DNA of 61,503 nucleotides, counting the filler, from an uncultured bacterium (GTDB lineage Bacteria; CAYSBA01): NCBI GenBank assembly GCA_964429075.1. It is 10 parts of 10 records of this genome, joined end to end, with 100 filler letters (N's around TTAATTAATTAA, not from the genome) between each part and the next. Parts side by side here need not be neighbours in the genome. Positions count along the whole stretch, not along the records: positions 43,480 to 49,471 come from CAYSBA010000096.1; 9 more parts are not named here. One strand, 5' to 3'. Position numbers and translations under genes: made by a program. Shown piece by piece: positions 6,223 to 49,471 of this stretch; position 1 is the first letter of the stretch, and every line of letters starts with the position of its first letter. The notes below the pieces were generated by a model. The model had not been told where the DNA came from. It did no database searches and saw nothing but the letters and a program-made list of their open reading frames with translations.

Positions 6223-6322
6223 NNNNNNNNNNNNNNNNNNNNNNNNNNNNNNNNNNNNNNNNNNNNTTAATTAATTAANNNNNNNNNNNNNNNNNNNNNN
6301 NNNNNNNNNNNNNNNNNNNNNN
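6223..6322. other. Artificial contig linker (44N-TTAATTAATTAA-44N); also at 12545-12644, 18806-18905, 25052-25151, 31183-31282, 37282-37381, 43380-43479, 49472-49571, 55495-55594
   Basis: Identical six-frame-stop spacer; contig lengths fall from 6222 to 5909 bp; genes are cut at linkers. Confidence 0.99.
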
Positions 6323-43379: not shown

Positions 43380-43480
43380 NNNNNNNNNNNNNNNNNNNNN
43401 NNNNNNNNNNNNNNNNNNNNNNNTTAATTAATTAANNNNNNNNNNNNNNNNNNNNNNNNNNNNNNNNNNNNNNNNNNNNA

Positions 43481-43918
43481 TCTAATATAAGAAATGAACT
43501 AATAGGATTCATCTTCCAGGATTTTTATCTCATCGAATACATTACAGTATTAGAAAATATCATCCTCCCTACTATCTATAGCAGAAAAGCAGTATATGAT
43601 CCAGAGAAGAGAGCTGTTGAGCTATTGGGACTCGTAGGTCTTGAGGATAGAAAACATTTCAGACCCCCTGAACTCTCTGGGGGACAGAAACAGAGGACAG
43701 CCATAGCTCGGGCACTCATAAATGATCCTGCCATTATACTCTGTGATGAACCCACTGGTCAGTTAGATAGTAAAACAGCTAAAGAGATCATGAATATGTT
43801 AGTTGAGCTCAATAGAAGAGGTAAAACCATTGTGCTAATAACCCATGACATAAACATAGCAGCATATGCTAAAAAGACATTATATATAGAAGATGGCTTG
43901 CTTAGTGGTGATCTATGA
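43481..43918 (+). CDS. ABC transporter ATP-binding protein (LolD/MacB-like), 5'-truncated
   Basis: IRNELIGFIFQDFYLI in the upstream frame; ELSGGQKQR, LCDEPTGQLD, ITHD. Confidence 0.9.
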   Translation, partial: SNIRNELIGFIFQDFYLIEYITVLENIILPTIYSRKAVYDPEKRAVELLGLVGLEDRKHFRPPELSGGQKQRTAIARALINDPAIILCDEPTGQLDSKTAKEIMNMLVELNRRGKTIVLITHDINIAAYAKKTLYIEDGLLSGDL

Positions 43919-44644
43919 TGTAGCGATTACTTCACTCCCAAAATAATATGTTTCAAGTGTTTTTGTATCTCTTATATATTGTTCAGGAGTTGAGGATTCA
44001 TGTACCAGGCGACCATTCACCAAAACAACAACTTTTGTTGCCCATGGCAGTGAAAGTTTAAGATTATGTTCAACAATACAGACAGCCTTTATTCCAAGAA
44101 GCTTTTGAGCATCTTCGATATATCTTATTATCTGAGAGGCAGCCTTTGGTGCAAGACCTGCTGATGGTTCATCAAGAAAAAGCACTACAGGCTGTTTCAT
44201 CAATATCATACCTATAGCCAGTGCCTGTCTTTCACCACCAGAGAGCAATCCTGCTCTTATTGAGAGTTTATCGTTTAAAAAGTTAAATATCTCAAGAATC
44301 GCATCTTTTCTTTTTGCCAATCTTCTACCCTTTAAAGGATAACCTCCAAGAATAAGGTTTTCATCTACTGTTAAGCCAGGCACTATATTTTCTGACTGAA
44401 GGAGGAAACCTATTCCTTTTAGCGTTCTTTTTTCTGTTGGCAAATGCGTAATATCTACTCCATTCAAGTAGATAGCTCCCTTTGATAGATTATGAATTCC
44501 AATTATTACCTTCAAAAGGGTAGATTTCCCGGCACCATTTGGTCCAATAAGGAGGACCCTTTCACCTTCTCCTATCTTCAATGATGTTCCAAAAAGTATC
44601 TGCTTCTTACCATAAAAGGCTTTTATATCTTTTGCCTCAATCAT
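43913..44644 (-). CDS. livF: Branched-chain amino acid-type ABC ATPase (LivF-like)
   Basis: GPNGAGKST, LTV.ENL, AG.LSGGERQ, LDEPSAGLAP, VEHN. Confidence 0.82.
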   Translation of the reverse strand: MIEAKDIKAFYGKKQILFGTSLKIGEGERVLLIGPNGAGKSTLLKVIIGIHNLSKGAIYLNGVDITHLPTEKRTLKGIGFLLQSENIVPGLTVDENLILGGYPLKGRRLAKRKDAILEIFNFLNDKLSIRAGLLSGGERQALAIGMILMKQPVVLFLDEPSAGLAPKAASQIIRYIEDAQKLLGIKAVCIVEHNLKLSLPWATKVVVLVNGRLVHESSTPEQYIRDTKTLETYYFGSEVIATS

Positions 44645-44664
44645 CTATTTTTTCCTCCATCCCA

Positions 44665-45429
44665 CTATAAACCCAGATATATCTCTTTCACTTCTTTATC
44701 ACCAAGCACATGATCAGTTCTGCCAAAAAAAGCGATACGGCCTTCATTCATAAAGTAAACCCAGTCTGCCACTTTTGTAACAGCACTCATGTTGTGTTCA
44801 ACAAGTATAATGGTTTTACTTTTATCTTCTTCCACAATCTTTTCCAATATCTTGAGTATCTTTTTAATCATAATAGGATTAAGTCCTGCTGTTGGCTCAT
44901 CAAGTAAAAGAAGGGAGAAGCCTCCCGCAAGAAGTCTTGCTATAGCAAGGAGTTTCTGTTGCCCATATGAAAGCTCCCCAGCAATTAAATCTGCCATGTT
45001 TGATAGTCCAACAAATTCAAGATATGAATAAACAGTATCTCTTATCTCTCTATTGATGTTCTTAAGAAGGCCACTTCTTATAAAAGGAAACCATGGGGAT
45101 TCCACCTTGTGGTTAAAATATGCAGATGCTACATTCTCAAAGACCTTAAGATTCTCAAAAACCCTTACATCCTGGAAGAGCCTTCCTACACCCTTTCTGG
45201 CTATCATATATGGTTTCAATGTTGTTATGTCTTCTCCATTATAAATAATCTTTCCACTGTCAGCACATAGCTCACCAGTGATCAAATGGAAAAGGGTGGT
45301 TTTACCTGCTCCATTAGGTCCAATTAATGCAGTTATCCTACCTGGTAGAAATATAGCTGTAACATTGTCTACAATTCTCAAGCCATTTAAAGCTTTACTG
45401 ATCTTTTTCAACATTAATCCACCCATCAC
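44665..45429 (-). CDS. livG: Branched-chain amino acid-type ABC ATPase (LivG-like)
   Basis: LIGPNGAGKTTLF, G..R.FQ..R.F, LSYGQQKLL, LDEPTAGL, VEHNM. Confidence 0.85.
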   Translation of the reverse strand: MMGGLMLKKISKALNGLRIVDNVTAIFLPGRITALIGPNGAGKTTLFHLITGELCADSGKIIYNGEDITTLKPYMIARKGVGRLFQDVRVFENLKVFENVASAYFNHKVESPWFPFIRSGLLKNINREIRDTVYSYLEFVGLSNMADLIAGELSYGQQKLLAIARLLAGGFSLLLLDEPTAGLNPIMIKKILKILEKIVEEDKSKTIILVEHNMSAVTKVADWVYFMNEGRIAFFGRTDHVLGDKEVKEIYLGL

Positions 45430-46295
45430 TTAACCCTATACTCCCCAGCTAATCCCTGTGGTCTTAAAAACATAAGCACAATCAATGTAAGTCCATAAAT
45501 CATTTGCCTTACGTTTGGTGCCACAGTATCAGGCAGTCCAAGAAACCTCAAAGCCTCTGGCAGTAGGAGCATGAAAACTGTTCCCACAAAGGGTCCAATT
45601 CTATTGCCTGCTCCACCTACAAGCAATATTGTAAGGAGAAAGATGCTTTCATCAAGTGTAAATGATGTAGGATCAATATATGTTACATATGTTGCATAAA
45701 GACTCCCTGCCAAAGATGCGAATAATGCTGAGATGACAAAGGCATAGAGAAACATATGCATAGGTGATTTACCAAGCCCCTCTGCAGCCATCTCATCATC
45801 CCTTAATGCCTTTAGTGCAAGGCCAAATGGTGCATGATAGAGAATAAAAAGCAATAAAATAGAAATGATCAGAACAACTCCGACGAGTATAAGATATTCT
45901 AAAAGAGATGAAATCTCATAACCAGCTACCACAGGTCTTGGAATGCCTGGTATGCCGTATGGTCCCCTTGTAAAGTCAACCCAGTTATAGAATATTGTAA
46001 AAAGGATCATCTGTATTCCAAGTGTAACAAGCACAAAAGAGTCCCCTCTAAATCTAAGAGCAGGGATTCCAATTAGAAAAGCTATTATACCAGTAATAAC
46101 CATACTTAGAAGCACAGAAGGGACAAAAGCCACACCAGCTTTTATCATCAGCAGCGTGCTTGCATATGCTCCTATACCATAAAACACAGCGTGGCATAGG
46201 GAGAGTAATCCACCAAAGCCAACTACAAGATTCAAGCCATAACTTAGAATTAGATAAATCCCTATCATTATCAAAAGATGAAGTATGTAATTCAT
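45426..46295 (-). CDS. livM: ABC permease (LivM-like)
   Basis: NLVVG..GLLSL.HA.FYGIGAY, LR.RGD.F..VTLG, T.GPYG, RPQGL. Confidence 0.85.
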   Translation of the reverse strand: MNYILHLLIMIGIYLILSYGLNLVVGFGGLLSLCHAVFYGIGAYASTLLMIKAGVAFVPSVLLSMVITGIIAFLIGIPALRFRGDSFVLVTLGIQMILFTIFYNWVDFTRGPYGIPGIPRPVVAGYEISSLLEYLILVGVVLIISILLLFILYHAPFGLALKALRDDEMAAEGLGKSPMHMFLYAFVISALFASLAGSLYATYVTYIDPTSFTLDESIFLLTILLVGGAGNRIGPFVGTVFMLLLPEALRFLGLPDTVAPNVRQMIYGLTLIVLMFLRPQGLAGEYRVK

Positions 46296-47173
46296 CTCTC
46301 TTCTCGCCTTTTCTTTGGTGAAAACAGCCCCTGTGGTCTAAACAGTAGTGTAGCAATTAGTATGCCGAATGTTATCAGATCATTCCATCTTGCAGAAAAC
46401 TGCCAGATAGCAATACTCTGAAGTATAGCTAAAATCAATGCTCCTCCAATCCATCCCCAGAACACATCAACTCCTCCTACAATCACTGCCACAGCACCTG
46501 TAAGAAGTGCCTGCATACCAGCGTGGGGATCAATTCCCACATCCAGAGAGGTGAGAATCGAGGCAGTACCCGCAAAAATTGAACTAAATATAAATACTAT
46601 GGTTCTCATAAGTTTATATGGAAGCCCTATGACCCGAACAAGTACAGGCCTTTCACCCATTGCCCAGATACCTTTTATTAGAGTATTTTTCCTTATACTC
46701 AACCAGAAAAAAAATACAAACATCCATCCTACTAAAAACTGTATAAGTTGCATTCTGGTGAACAATAAAGAACCTACTCTAAATGATGGTTCAACACCCC
46801 TTGACAGTATTTTAACCTCATTGCCAAAGAGTAGGGCTATAAGGTTTACAAAGAGGATGTATATACCAAGAGAGGCGATTAATAAGACGCCAGATGTTGC
46901 TCCTACTTTCTCAAGAGGGAAGTAAACAGTTTTATCCATCATCCAGCCTATGATAGCTGCAATAGTGATTCCAAAAACAATGGATACAGGCAATGGTATG
47001 CCATGAAACATAGTTACAGCTAACACAACATAGGTGGCTACTATATAAACAGCCCCAAAAGCGATATGAAAAAACCTCATAGAACGATAGACTAATCCAA
47101 ATCCAACAGCCAGTAAACTATAAATTGCAGCATTTACTATTGCATTAAGGAGAAGCTGTAATAAAAGTGTCAT
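46292..47173 (-). CDS. livH: ABC permease (LivH-like)
   Basis: IYSLLAVGFGLVY....FHIA.G, A.IVGG, LLFRPQGLF; ATGA overlaps on both sides. Confidence 0.85.
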   Translation of the reverse strand: MTLLLQLLLNAIVNAAIYSLLAVGFGLVYRSMRFFHIAFGAVYIVATYVVLAVTMFHGIPLPVSIVFGITIAAIIGWMMDKTVYFPLEKVGATSGVLLIASLGIYILFVNLIALLFGNEVKILSRGVEPSFRVGSLLFTRMQLIQFLVGWMFVFFFWLSIRKNTLIKGIWAMGERPVLVRVIGLPYKLMRTIVFIFSSIFAGTASILTSLDVGIDPHAGMQALLTGAVAVIVGGVDVFWGWIGGALILAILQSIAIWQFSARWNDLITFGILIATLLFRPQGLFSPKKRREER

Positions 47174-47571
47174 CTTAATCTATCAATAGCCTTATTGAGT
47201 TCTTCAGGCTCAATGGGTTTACGTATAAAATAATCTGCTCCAAGATTAAGTGCCTCAACTGCAAAATCAAACTCCCTGTATGCACTCATAACAATCACCT
47301 TAACATCAGGATATCTCTCTTTAATCCATTTTAAAAGCTCAAGTCCTTCTTTGTTTTCGGGATCATCCTCTTTAAGACGTATGTCTATTATTGCAAGATC
47401 AACCTTTGTTTCAGAGAGTATTTTCTCTGCTTCTTTAAGATTAAGGGATTTGAAAACATTAAACCTGTCTTCAAGATATACCTCAAGTGTATCAAGATAC
47501 TCAGGTATGTCGTCAACGATTAATACTTTTAGAGTATTGGTTTGTTGGAGTGTTGGGGTTCTGTTTTTCAT
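47170..47571 (-). CDS. Single-domain response regulator (receiver)
   Basis: VLIVDD, DLAIIDIRL (phospho-Asp), VIVMSAY, GADYFIRKP. Confidence 0.9.
   Translation of the reverse strand: MKNRTPTLQQTNTLKVLIVDDIPEYLDTLEVYLEDRFNVFKSLNLKEAEKILSETKVDLAIIDIRLKEDDPENKEGLELLKWIKERYPDVKVIVMSAYREFDFAVEALNLGADYFIRKPIEPEELNKAIDRLR
47530..47559. repeat. Left arm: degenerate octamer array (TAGAGTAT TGGTTTGT TGGAGTGT TGGGGT) inside the receiver gene 5' end
   Basis: 8-bp periodicity; reverse complement ACCCCAACACTCCA matches 48992-49005 at 13 of 14 bases. Confidence 0.6.
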
Positions 47572-47580
47572 GTGATTATT

Positions 47581-48846
47581 TTAGCACAAATATCCTTCAC
47601 TGTTCAGAAGAAACCTCCAGAGTGGAACAACTCTTATCTCTGTAAAGTCTGTCAGGATCTCTGCTTCTACATTTTTAGATATAACCAGTGCCCTTTTTGT
47701 TTGCGGGTGTCGCTTCAGAAAAAGCCTCAATCCTGAGAATCTCCTGTCCTTCCATTCAAAAGAGGATAGATATTTGACCTCTATTGGAAAGGGGTTCTTT
47801 GGACTACCTGTAACAAAATCAACCTCCTTTTCACTTTCAGCAAAATACCCGCAGGCGATCCTTTTCTTCTTTAGTTCCATGAAGATGGCATTTTCAGCCT
47901 TATATCCCATGTCTCCTATGCCTGTAAGAAGGGTCTTTATACCTGTGTCCCATAGATAGACCTTCTTGGAGGCATAGATCCTCTCTGTATACGATGTCGT
48001 CCACTTTTCCATAAGGGCAACAAGGAAAGCAGATTCAAGATAACTTATATACTCCTTCACTGTGTCCACTGATAAGCCAAGGATCTTACCGAGTTTATTA
48101 AAACTTATACGGGAACCAACTGATGATGCTATGAGACGCAGGAGATCCTTAAGGACAAAGGGCTTTTTTAATGGGTAGAGCCTGATAAGGTCTCTTGCCA
48201 GTATGTCCTCAAGGAGGTTGCTCATATACTCAGAAGAGGGATTAAGGACATTTTCAGGATATCCACCTATTTCAAGATACTCCTCTATGAGCCCTTCATA
48301 TCTGTAGTCTTCTGCCAGGCTCGGTCTCTCACCCCTGAAAGAGAGGAACTCTGAAAAACCGAGTGGATAAAGGGTGCTAACTATCTGCCTTCCTGTAAGC
48401 CTTCCCCTCTGCCTTGCTACGAGTGAGGAGGTAGAGCCTGTGACAAATATTTTCAGGTCTTCTGTATCGTAGAGGGATTTGAGTTCCATCTCCCAATCAG
48501 AGCTTTCCTGAACCTCATCAAGGAATAAAAAGAGCCTTATTTTACGCTCATGCATGAATAGCCTTCTCATATTCTTCAGATGCTCTGATATTGCCACACC
48601 GGAAAGGGCAGGGTGGTCAAGGGCAAGATAAAATATCCTATCTGACGACGTGCCATTCTTAAGAAGTGCCTTTATGAACTGTTTAAGAAGCGTGGTCTTT
48701 CCCGTTCGCCTGCTTCCAATTATGACCTCTATCTGTTTTCTCTTAAGGAACTCAGGTAGCCTGCCGACATATTCCGTCCGCTCTATGCCAGATTCAAAGT
48801 CCTTTCCTTCCCACCAGGGGTTGAGAGTATAATATATTGCTTCCAT
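47581..48846 (-). CDS. AAA_14/DUF4143 family ATPase with C-terminal PD-(D/E)xK-like motif
   Basis: NPWW, G.RRTGKTT, LDEVQ, VTGS, LTGR, GGYPE, K.Y..DTG, EN, EVDF...IEVK. Confidence 0.9.
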   Translation of the reverse strand: MEAIYYTLNPWWEGKDFESGIERTEYVGRLPEFLKRKQIEVIIGSRRTGKTTLLKQFIKALLKNGTSSDRIFYLALDHPALSGVAISEHLKNMRRLFMHERKIRLFLFLDEVQESSDWEMELKSLYDTEDLKIFVTGSTSSLVARQRGRLTGRQIVSTLYPLGFSEFLSFRGERPSLAEDYRYEGLIEEYLEIGGYPENVLNPSSEYMSNLLEDILARDLIRLYPLKKPFVLKDLLRLIASSVGSRISFNKLGKILGLSVDTVKEYISYLESAFLVALMEKWTTSYTERIYASKKVYLWDTGIKTLLTGIGDMGYKAENAIFMELKKKRIACGYFAESEKEVDFVTGSPKNPFPIEVKYLSSFEWKDRRFSGLRLFLKRHPQTKRALVISKNVEAEILTDFTEIRVVPLWRFLLNSEGYLC

Positions 48847-48886
48847 ATTAAAATTGTAACATGAATCGAAATAATTATCAAAAACT

Positions 48887-48902
48887 TTCGATTATAATCG
48901 AA
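48887..48902. promoter_or_regulatory. Perfect 16-bp palindrome TTCGATTATAATCGAA, candidate operator of the ATPase gene
   Basis: Self-complementary; 40 bp upstream of the ATPase start; extra half-site AATCGAA at 48864-48870; contains TATAAT on both strands. Confidence 0.55.
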
Positions 48903-48973
48903 GATTTGGTAACTTACAGATTATGTTCATATTAAGCACATTTATGTAACAATTAGGAGTATTGCACTACCAC

Positions 48974-49005
48974 ATCCTCCACTACTCCATCACCCCAACA
49001 CTTCA
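48974..49005. repeat. Right arm: degenerate octamer array (ATCCTCCA CTACTCCA TCACCCCA ACACTTCA)
   Basis: Four 8-bp units with consensus nnACTCCA, inverted relative to 47530-47559. Confidence 0.65.
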
Positions 49006-49023
49006 GTCTTTTAATCCTTATTA

Positions 49024-49050
49024 ATTCGTGCCCATTCGTGTAGATTCGTG
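49024..49050 (+). repeat. Three ATTCGTG heptamers at exact 10-bp period
   Basis: ATTCGTG at 49024, 49034 and 49044. Confidence 0.8.
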
Positions 49051-49071
49051 GCTAACCCCACCCCTCCCATA

Positions 49072-49080
49072 TGTTATAAT
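49072..49080 (+). promoter_or_regulatory. Extended -10 promoter (TGnTATAAT) for hicB-hicA
   Basis: TGTTATAAT about 48 bp before the hicB ATG; AGGAGG RBS at 49117-49122. Confidence 0.6.
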
Positions 49081-49127
49081 GAAATTAGTTACTCGGGTCT
49101 GAGCAAGAATACTGGTAGGAGGTTGTT

Positions 49128-49328
49128 ATGAGATATAAAGTTAACCTTAAAAAGACAGAAGAAGGATATTCTGTATGGATGCCTGGTTTACCGGGTTGCT
49201 GGTCGCAGGGAGCAACAGAAGAAGAAGCACTTGAAAACATCAAAGATGCCATACAGGCATATCTAAAAACAGTAGAAGAATTAGCAAAGGATGAGGAATC
49301 TCGCTATGTAGAGATAGCCAATGCCTAA
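49128..49328 (+). CDS. hicB: HicB-family antitoxin, short form with no DNA-binding domain
   Basis: Y.V.L...EEGYSV..PGLPGC.SQG.TEEEALENIKDAI..YL. Confidence 0.92.
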   Translation: MRYKVNLKKTEEGYSVWMPGLPGCWSQGATEEEALENIKDAIQAYLKTVEELAKDEESRYVEIANA

Positions 49329-49471
49329 GTTGCCCGGCATAAATCACCAGAGGGCAGTAAAGGCATTGTAAAAAGCCGGGTTCTGGATTGTTCGAGAAGG
49401 TAAGCATATCACCATGACCAATGGAGAGCGTATCATAACCATTCCAAGAGCAAATCCCATTAATGCTTTTA
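49321..49471 (+). pseudogene. hicA: HicA-family toxin with in-frame TAA at 49369-49371; also cut by the contig end
   Basis: Translates MPKLPGINHQRAVKAL*KAGFWIVREGKHITMTNGERIITIPRANPINAF; start overlaps the hicB end. Confidence 0.85.

Follow-up and report, generated by a model that had tools for sequence, protein, structure and literature searches.

Introduction

Several described systems place short repeats around or between genes. Cyanobacterial short tandemly repeated repetitive (STRR) heptamers and the enterobacterial repetitive extragenic palindromic sequences and bacterial interspersed mosaic elements (REP/BIME) are short-period or hairpin repeats located in intergenic spacers inside operons, while integron cassettes carry genes, either lacking a promoter or self-contained, between imperfect inverted repeats (attC) at a recurrent insertion point. 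To our knowledge, STRR and REP/BIME repeats have no link to a four-helix-bundle gene. Here, we analyze a gene for an AAA_14/DUF4143 ATPase that lies between two short arrays of an eight-base unit in opposite orientation, upstream of a receiver gene, in an uncultured bacterium (GenBank assembly GCA_964429075.1, hereafter G000). Positions refer to the 61,503-nt stretch of DNA that was analyzed (the window), in which the contig of interest, C96 (5992 nt), occupies 43480-49471.

The intervening sequences (IVS) of 23S rRNA offer another point of comparison. The helix-45 IVS of Coxiella burnetii 23S rRNA carries an open reading frame (ORF) for a four-helix-bundle protein (S23p/PF05635) within terminal inverted repeats that form a stem, and such sequences are regarded as selfish and as being excised by RNase III (PMC4990558). 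PF05635 proteins are stated to resemble Avd, the nucleic-acid-binding four-helix-bundle pentamer of diversity-generating retroelements (PMC10053308). With regard to the ATPase, a third source ranks PDC-S01, an ATPase fused to a PD-(D/E)XK domain, as the fourth most common defence candidate, with validation pending for most such candidates, PDC-S01 included (PMC12988326).

The locus studied here is a protein-coding operon, not a 23S rRNA helix. Related loci (L128, L132 and L106) contain a cassette with a gene of the IVS family, and the arms of the L128 cassette pair in silico. These cassettes differ from an IVS in sitting at protein-coding operon junctions rather than in rRNA, and in having arms made of 8-nt tandem arrays rather than unique inverted repeats. 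The window departs further, as it has no four-helix-bundle gene and retains a single cassette arm. The likeness to Avd is one of PF05635 family resemblance. The window ATPase is a full-length match to the PDC-S01 model, a likeness that says nothing on the arms. ORF-less arrays in L014 and L132 fill operon spacers as STRR and REP/BIME repeats do, with a different unit, period and phyla. Unlike integron cassettes, the locus has arms that are tandem octamers and not attC, and no integrase was found among the ORFs of the 6-kb contig, although a distant one may exist.

An initial annotation of the window had read the ATPase gene and its flanking arrays as a candidate repeat-delimited gene cassette. 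We find it likely instead that the arms are decayed remnants of two different octamer-array elements from a lineage-specific family, and that they enclose an accessory gene, the ATPase, which is self-contained and unrelated to them, the arrangement having arisen in two events.

Results

Orthologous operons and the retained NtrC promoter

The stand-alone receiver (response regulator; 47170-47571, minus strand; 133 amino acids; PF00072, 1.3e-23) is the first gene of an operon with LivH-LivM-LivG-LivF (43913-47173, minus strand), branched-chain amino-acid ATP-binding cassette transporter genes that are conserved downstream of it. Orthologous loci (L-numbers; G-numbers denote genomes, and L014 belongs to G041) were drawn from genome and metagenome contig collections; the 40 listed relatives of G000, related only at the level of 'same domain', yielded none. 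The resulting set comprises 67 receiver-orthologue loci, 41 of which have at least 1500 nt upstream and were used for counting the upstream gene. LivH lies immediately downstream of the receiver in 61/67. The orthologues are 60-82% identical over the receiver domain, and most start M-K-K-x-LIVDD with no leader; a few bear the leaders LHYSNTP or LQHSNTP, which are translated nnACTCCA units.

In the window receiver, the only in-frame ATG, GTG or TTG before the conserved VLIVDD is at 47571. The left arm (47528-47562, minus strand), which on the gene strand is a (-) array of about four nnACTCCA-type octamers, is translated as residues 4-15. The narrower span first noted, 47530-47559, does correspond to residues 5-14, TPTLQQTNTL.

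An NtrC-like sigma-54 activator gene lies directly upstream of the receiver in 30 of the 41 loci (29 by script, L014 by eye), and the 11 loci without one are the more distant loci. L014 is the closest locus, with a receiver 80-81% identical, hicAB 90% and Liv genes 72-77%. The G000 assembly, 71% complete, contains no NtrC orthologue, its best match having 43% identity. The promoter of this gene is recognizable: window positions 47587-47566 (minus strand) share 19/22 bases with a motif conserved before the NtrC-like gene in L014, L106, L126, L127 and L018, where a TGnTAAAAT -10 element is followed by 6 nt and the NtrC start codon. Allowing up to four changes, this motif has two matches in G000, both on C96 (47587-47566, and just upstream of the ATPase start). 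The retained promoter and start extend over 47566-47590, with the -10 element at 47583-47578 and the start codon at 47571-47569, and a promoter-like site at 47606-47578 lies upstream of the receiver. The NtrC -10 element opens with the ATPase stop codon, TAA. The receiver start is the old NtrC ATG, and the (-) arm begins nine bases after it. With this promoter and ATG separating the ATPase from the left arm, the ATPase would have been inserted outside the old cassette position.

Assemblies whose labels span widely separated phyla, among them Thermodesulfovibrio, Desulfobacterales, Heimdallarchaeota, Hydrothermales, Lentisphaera and Ignavibacteria, also contain the receiver-LivHMGF operon (receiver 47-80% identical, L014-L028). 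This spread may reflect either horizontal transfer of the operon or mis-binned contigs.

Four-helix-bundle cassettes at the NtrC/receiver junction

Some relatives hold a complete version of what the left arm appears to have belonged to. In L128, the order is an NtrC-like gene (ending ...RYGVVE stop), a (+) array, a gene for a 146-residue protein, a (-) array and the receiver. The 146-residue protein is a TIGR02436 four-helix bundle (4.6e-22), of the family known from intervening sequences of 23S rRNA. The stop codon of its gene and the receiver ATG overlap, and the (-) array encodes the receiver leader MTKLQNSNTPIPR. The cassette arms pair when this locus is folded. L132 has an L128-like layout with a broken gene copy and a shorter (-) arm, and L106, a second allele in the genome of L014, shows the (+) array and the start of the four-helix-bundle gene before its contig ends. 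The NtrC/receiver junction is vacant in L014, L126 and L127. The window leader aligns with the (-) arm of L128 (4 units) and of L132 (1-2 units), and has no counterpart at the three vacant junctions. On this alignment, the left arm is homologous to the cassette (-) arm of L128 and L132.

Among the relatives more widely, 21 four-helix-bundle loci were analyzed of 30 returned (nine were dropped as short, at a contig end or a repeat of L106). Flank pairing reached z <= -2 in 13/21 and a tandem flank score of at least 20/24 was likewise seen in 13/21, the sequence of the array unit varying between loci. GxxExxY genes of the same genomes (17 loci analyzed of 20 returned) are flanked by other short units, with GGAGT units in 0/17.

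The NtrC/receiver junction also contains other inserts, namely a small two-gene insert in L136-L139, a gene for a 218-residue membrane protein in L152, and arrays without an ORF in L147 and L153, comprising a hairpin built from TGGAATGA units and a GAAG-rich set of arrays some 500 nt long. The variety of these inserts clearly marks the junction as a hot spot.

In orientation and unit, the window arms fit such a cassette, taken as inverted tandem arrays of one 7-9-nt unit that adjoin both ends of the ORF. The gene they enclose is an AAA_14/DUF4143 ATPase and not a TIGR02436/PF05635 gene, the right arm is 121 nt from its ATG with the ATPase promoter between, and the tandem score is only 16/24. 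No PF05635 gene was found in G000, an assembly that is 71% complete, and tblastn between the arms for relics of NtrC or the four-helix-bundle gene gave noise (best E 0.5-0.8; 0.79 for the four-helix-bundle gene).

The right arm (48967-49005, minus strand) is, on the gene strand, a degenerate (+) array of about four TGGAGTNN-type octamers, 121-159 nt upstream of the ATPase ATG. It matches the arrays in the hicB-NtrC spacers of L014 and L106, loci without the ATPase. Between the arms, window 48966-47518 is unrelated to L014 590-2017.

The ATPase module

The ATPase (47581-48846, minus strand; 421 amino acids; PF13173, 1.9e-29; PF13635, 6.5e-24) matches the PADLOC PDC-S01 model PDLC04787 (1.4e-84, residues 19-416). 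Its promoter/operator region (48847-48915, minus strand) comprises TTGATA-17-TACAAT at 48881-48853, followed by 6 nt and the ATG, together with a palindrome at 48887-48902 and an extra TTCGATT half-site.

Receiver-orthologue loci lack this gene, with an ATPase match in 0/67. A close orthologue occurs in 1 of 401 genomes of the phylum, G135, at 68% identity over the full length. Its locus has in common with the window about 65 nt upstream of the ATG, containing the TTCGA..TCGAA palindrome, the half-site, TTGAYA-17-TA.AAT and the 6 nt to the ATG. The similarity ends at the stop codon and fades upstream of the promoter/operator. The G135 orthologue has no arrays, and its neighbours are a HEPN/nucleotidyltransferase pair; both it and the window ATPase are beside toxin-antitoxin genes. 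Among ATPase homologue loci, a tandem flank score of at least 20/24 occurs in 0/24, vs 13/21 four-helix-bundle loci, and a flank duplex z <= -2 in 0/20, vs 13/21. Counting 7-mers common to the two flanks did not discriminate between the sets, as noise in AT-rich DNA was too high (five or more in 12/21 four-helix-bundle loci and 7/24 ATPase loci).

For both the ATPase (48846-48881) and the receiver (47571-47606), the -10 element ends 6 nt before the ATG and there is no Shine-Dalgarno sequence. G135 and five related loci preserve the 6-nt spacing, a pattern that suggests leaderless messages in this lineage.

Repeat character and pairing of the two arms

Judged by their sequence, the arms are degenerate copies of the 8-base tandem unit TGGAGTNN/nnACTCCA. 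The sequences first given for 47530-47559 and 48974-49005 were confirmed, as was their position around the AAA_14/DUF4143 gene and a perfect 16-nt palindrome (48887-48902). The 13/14 inverted match between 47546-47559 and 48992-49005, on which the initial annotation had drawn, exists but carries no significance alone. C96 contains five 14-mer inverted pairs with at most one mismatch, vs 4.1 +/- 2.5 in 40 dinucleotide shuffles, 16/40 of which reach five, and in a 3.5-kb scan the match ranks 24 of 84 inverted pairs. Tandem Repeats Finder at a minimum score of 30 called no array at either arm. The tandem flank score of the window is 16/24 on both sides, where ordinary ATPase flanks peak at 17.

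Other measures set the arms apart. The right arm is the sole strict period-8 run of at least three GG[AG]G[TG] cores in the 1.54-Mb assembly, and G000 has no strict runs of this core at periods 5-7 and 9-12. Scored against (nnACTCCA)x4, the right arm (21/24) and left arm (20/24) are the top two of about 3.1 million positions, the next scoring 19; this genome-wide test is partly circular, as the consensus was derived from the arms themselves. The arm-to-arm RNA duplex has a predicted energy of -29.6 kcal/mol (z -2.7), compared with -20.9 +/- 3.3 for composition-matched shuffles, 6/500 of which are as good, and 0.5% of 3000 random genomic 35-mers match it. Mutual complementarity thus exceeds chance, and both arms have homologues in related loci. 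RNAduplex applied to 166-nt flanks gave z +1.5 for the window, a value swamped by flank length, and the calculation was redone on the arms alone. The alternative local hairpin at 48956-48988 that had been put forward as a caveat does not stand out (z -0.7; 44/200 shuffles as good).

The octamer-array family in relatives

Short-period arrays of the TGGAGTNN unit are a real family. In the scan of relatives that had been proposed, three tandem copies of TGGAGTNN were found in 10/61 relatives of G041, and a reversed-pattern control gave 0. In array-bearing genomes, arrays occur at the junctions of housekeeping genes, at many junctions and in either orientation. Location between inverted arrays consequently does not, on its own, indicate a passenger. 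Perfect runs of at least 11 units sit at contig ends, as observed for (TGGAGTGA) runs of that length at the ends of G064:C11, C80, C164 and G065:C136. Because arrays break short-read assemblies, array counts in such genomes are lower bounds.

L014 illustrates the extent of the family within a single operon, with TGGAGTGG, TGGAGTAT and TGGAGTGA runs in the spacer before the gene upstream of the receiver and in every Liv-operon spacer. ORF-less hairpins of the same unit occupy the receiver-LivH, LivH-LivM and LivG-LivF spacers in L014 and L132, and in three L014 spacers a (+) array pairs with a (-) array to give a predicted hairpin (-33 to -60 kcal/mol).

Arrays also enter coding sequence. At L014 470-600, the NtrC-like gene is interrupted near its 5' end by an array of about 100 nt within the coding sequence, and a CATATA on either side of the array resembles a target duplication. 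The original frame runs into a stop within the array, and an ATG at the array end provides a new start for the gene; the NtrC-like gene of L018 and L127 has the form without this interruption. In L115 (1499-3001), an octamer array (2292-2312) is in frame in a 500-residue ORF, between CbiG_C and TP_methylase domains. It seems to have joined two cobalamin genes into one and to form the linker in the translated product.

The papers searched gave no match to the array 16-mers, and nothing in them links four-helix-bundle/IVS proteins to flanking tandem arrays or describes the array-flanked layout. A family of four-helix-bundle genes in inverted tandem arrays outside rRNA was thus not found in the literature searched.

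Flanking genes, assembly and sequencing coverage

On the far side of the right arm, the hicB antitoxin gene (49128-49328, plus strand; PF15919) is divergent from the ATPase and forms a conserved left border, as in L014 and L106; the hicB region has 90% nucleotide identity to L014 1-273. In its toxin partner hicA (49321-49471), which runs off the contig end, codon 17 (49369-49371) is an in-frame TAA instead of the CAA of L014, and the toxin appears to be inactivated. Upstream of hicB, its promoter region contains three ATTCGTG units with a 10-nt period (49024-49050), near which lie a TGnTATAAT element and a run rich in C (about 49057-49070). The ATTCGTG unit is similar to arrays around four-helix-bundle genes in L218 and L219, and the three units could represent either an operator or another relic array.

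The G+C content of the ATPase is 43%, vs 35-39% in the flanks. As the initial annotation observed, no integrase is visible on the 6-kb contig, all ORFs of C96 being assigned to Liv, the receiver, the ATPase or HicAB. An Rfam scan of C96 at E up to 1 gave no match.

The window chains separate contigs through ten N44-TTAATTAATTAA-N44 linkers (6223-6322 and nine more), and adjacency across linkers is meaningless. G000 comprises 282 contigs and 1.54 Mb at 39% G+C, and is fragmented and 71% complete. Elongation factor P (EF-P) is 65-67% identical between G000 and the array-bearing genomes, and 53% between G000 and two other operon-holding genomes; by this measure, G000 is a moderately distant relative of the array-bearing genomes. 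The stretch is present in one DNA sequencing run, a hot-springs metagenome that is probably the source sample, and no RNA run was listed. Contigs of that run hold the assembled form of the locus at about 8x depth. Fragments at 3x with loose ends near 47570, 48142 and 48952, one skipping 48231-48924, have low likeness and were not read as alleles.

Discussion

The comparisons point to a history in two steps. The ancestral layout, which relatives still show, has a divergent hicB and a spacer with (+) arrays, followed by the gene for the NtrC-like regulator with its promoter and start, the receiver and LivHMGF; in some relatives, a four-helix-bundle cassette with (+) and (-) arrays around it is also present exactly at the NtrC/receiver junction. 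In a first event, the ATPase module, with its own promoter, palindromic operator and leaderless start, probably entered the spacer between hicB and NtrC, immediately before the NtrC -10 element, to which the final three ATPase codons became fused. In a second event, NtrC and any cassette body after it were probably deleted, from about codon 3 to the (-) arm, possibly through a CA..ATGA microhomology common to both sites. As a result, the receiver-Liv operon would be read from the old NtrC promoter and ATG, with the (-) arm serving as a 14-residue leader. The homologies, the breakpoints and the lack of arrays around ATPase homologues are observed, while the order of the two events, their mechanism and the absence of a role for the arm pair in the window are inferred. 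The inverted bracket appears to be a side effect of two rearrangements that were independent of each other, rather than a functioning cassette.

Part of the first reading of this locus holds. The array family is real, inverted pairs do bracket an accessory gene in this operon (L128, L132, L106), and the left arm belongs to that arrangement. The ATPase as passenger and the two arms as one element are not upheld, given the lack of the gene at receiver-orthologue loci (0/67), the array-free G135 locus, the 0/24 tandem flanks and the NtrC promoter lying between. As to whether arrays are at chance and orthologous loci keep the ATPase without arms, the arrays are real and the orthologous loci hold no ATPase.

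Several observations weigh against the history in two events. The region differing from L014 is bounded almost exactly by the arms, as array-mediated exchange would also predict. The positional homology of the right arm is ambiguous, lying either with L014 291-313 (the hicB-proximal mini-array) or with L014 503-589 (the larger array). The complementarity of the arms is above chance (6/500 shuffles as good), and they pair in both the minimum free energy (MFE) and centroid folds of the 1498-nt sense RNA. A single close ATPase orthologue locus was available for comparison, and the closest comparison genomes reach only about 65-67% EF-P identity to G000. Moreover, arrays break assemblies, and in a fragmented assembly that is 71% complete the four-helix-bundle gene or more arrays may be unassembled.

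An exchange of cassettes would account for the match between breakpoints and arms. The arrays would then be portable homology or homing sites, and the ATPase a recently captured passenger that replaced a four-helix-bundle gene, and NtrC with it, by recombination. We regard this as unlikely, despite the segment unlike L014 being bounded by the two arms, the varied inserts at the NtrC/receiver hot spot (the L128, L132 and L106 cassette; L136-L139; L152; L147 and L153) and the (+) arrays flanking NtrC in L014 and L106, which are direct repeats able to delete NtrC. The position of the NtrC promoter and ATG, on the left-arm side of the ATPase, places the ATPase outside the cassette position, and about 50 nt of unrelated sequence separates the right arm from the ATPase module. 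ATPase homologues also lack arrays (0/24), and GxxExxY genes have other units (0/17 with GGAGT), so that arms seem tied to their own passenger. The broader proposition, in which a cassette system not yet described uses the arrays as substrates for recombination or homing, swaps unrelated passengers at one operon junction and rewires the host operon, is in our view quite unlikely. If true, such a system would donate start codons, leader peptides and promoter contexts to the host operon, with a four-helix-bundle gene as passenger in relatives and a defence-candidate ATPase in the window.

The pairing of the arms raises a second explanation, in which, as the initial annotation also proposed, a functional RNA stem loops out the ATPase message, in the manner of an rRNA IVS. 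A double-strand RNase would then uncouple expression of the ATPase from that of receiver-Liv, or the receiver start would be sequestered. In its favour are the arm pairing in the MFE and centroid folds, a duplex at -29.6 kcal/mol with z -2.7, similar folding of the intact L128 cassette, and the excision of ORF-bearing 23S IVSs by RNase III at such a stem (PMC4990558). Against it, the right arm lies at least 86 nt upstream of the conserved ATPase promoter, whose spacing predicts a leaderless transcript from the ATG, and no minus-strand promoter-like site for read-through was found upstream of 49005. With the left arm inside a translated region, and both arms degenerate and 1.4 kb apart, we consider a working stem very unlikely. 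It is extremely unlikely that the arms are merely CA-rich and GT-rich low-complexity patches that resemble arrays by accident. The chance-level 13/14 match, the blank Tandem Repeats Finder result and tandem scores of 16/24 on both flanks, within the ordinary ATPase-flank range (maximum 17), would fit such an origin; it is largely refuted by the alignment of each arm with clear arrays at the matching place in L014, L106, L128 and L132, by the right arm being unique in the genome as a strict period-8 array, and by complementarity above that of shuffles and random genomic segments.

Under the preferred history of two array remnants around an unrelated ATPase, the window is a relic, and its comparison with related loci gives a base-level history of how repeat-flanked cassettes have reshaped a conserved operon. 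That history includes an array inside the 5' coding end of an NtrC gene and a cassette set at a stop/start overlap. It also includes arrays that supply start codons and N-terminal leaders, and the loss of a regulator whose promoter and ATG were taken over by the next gene.

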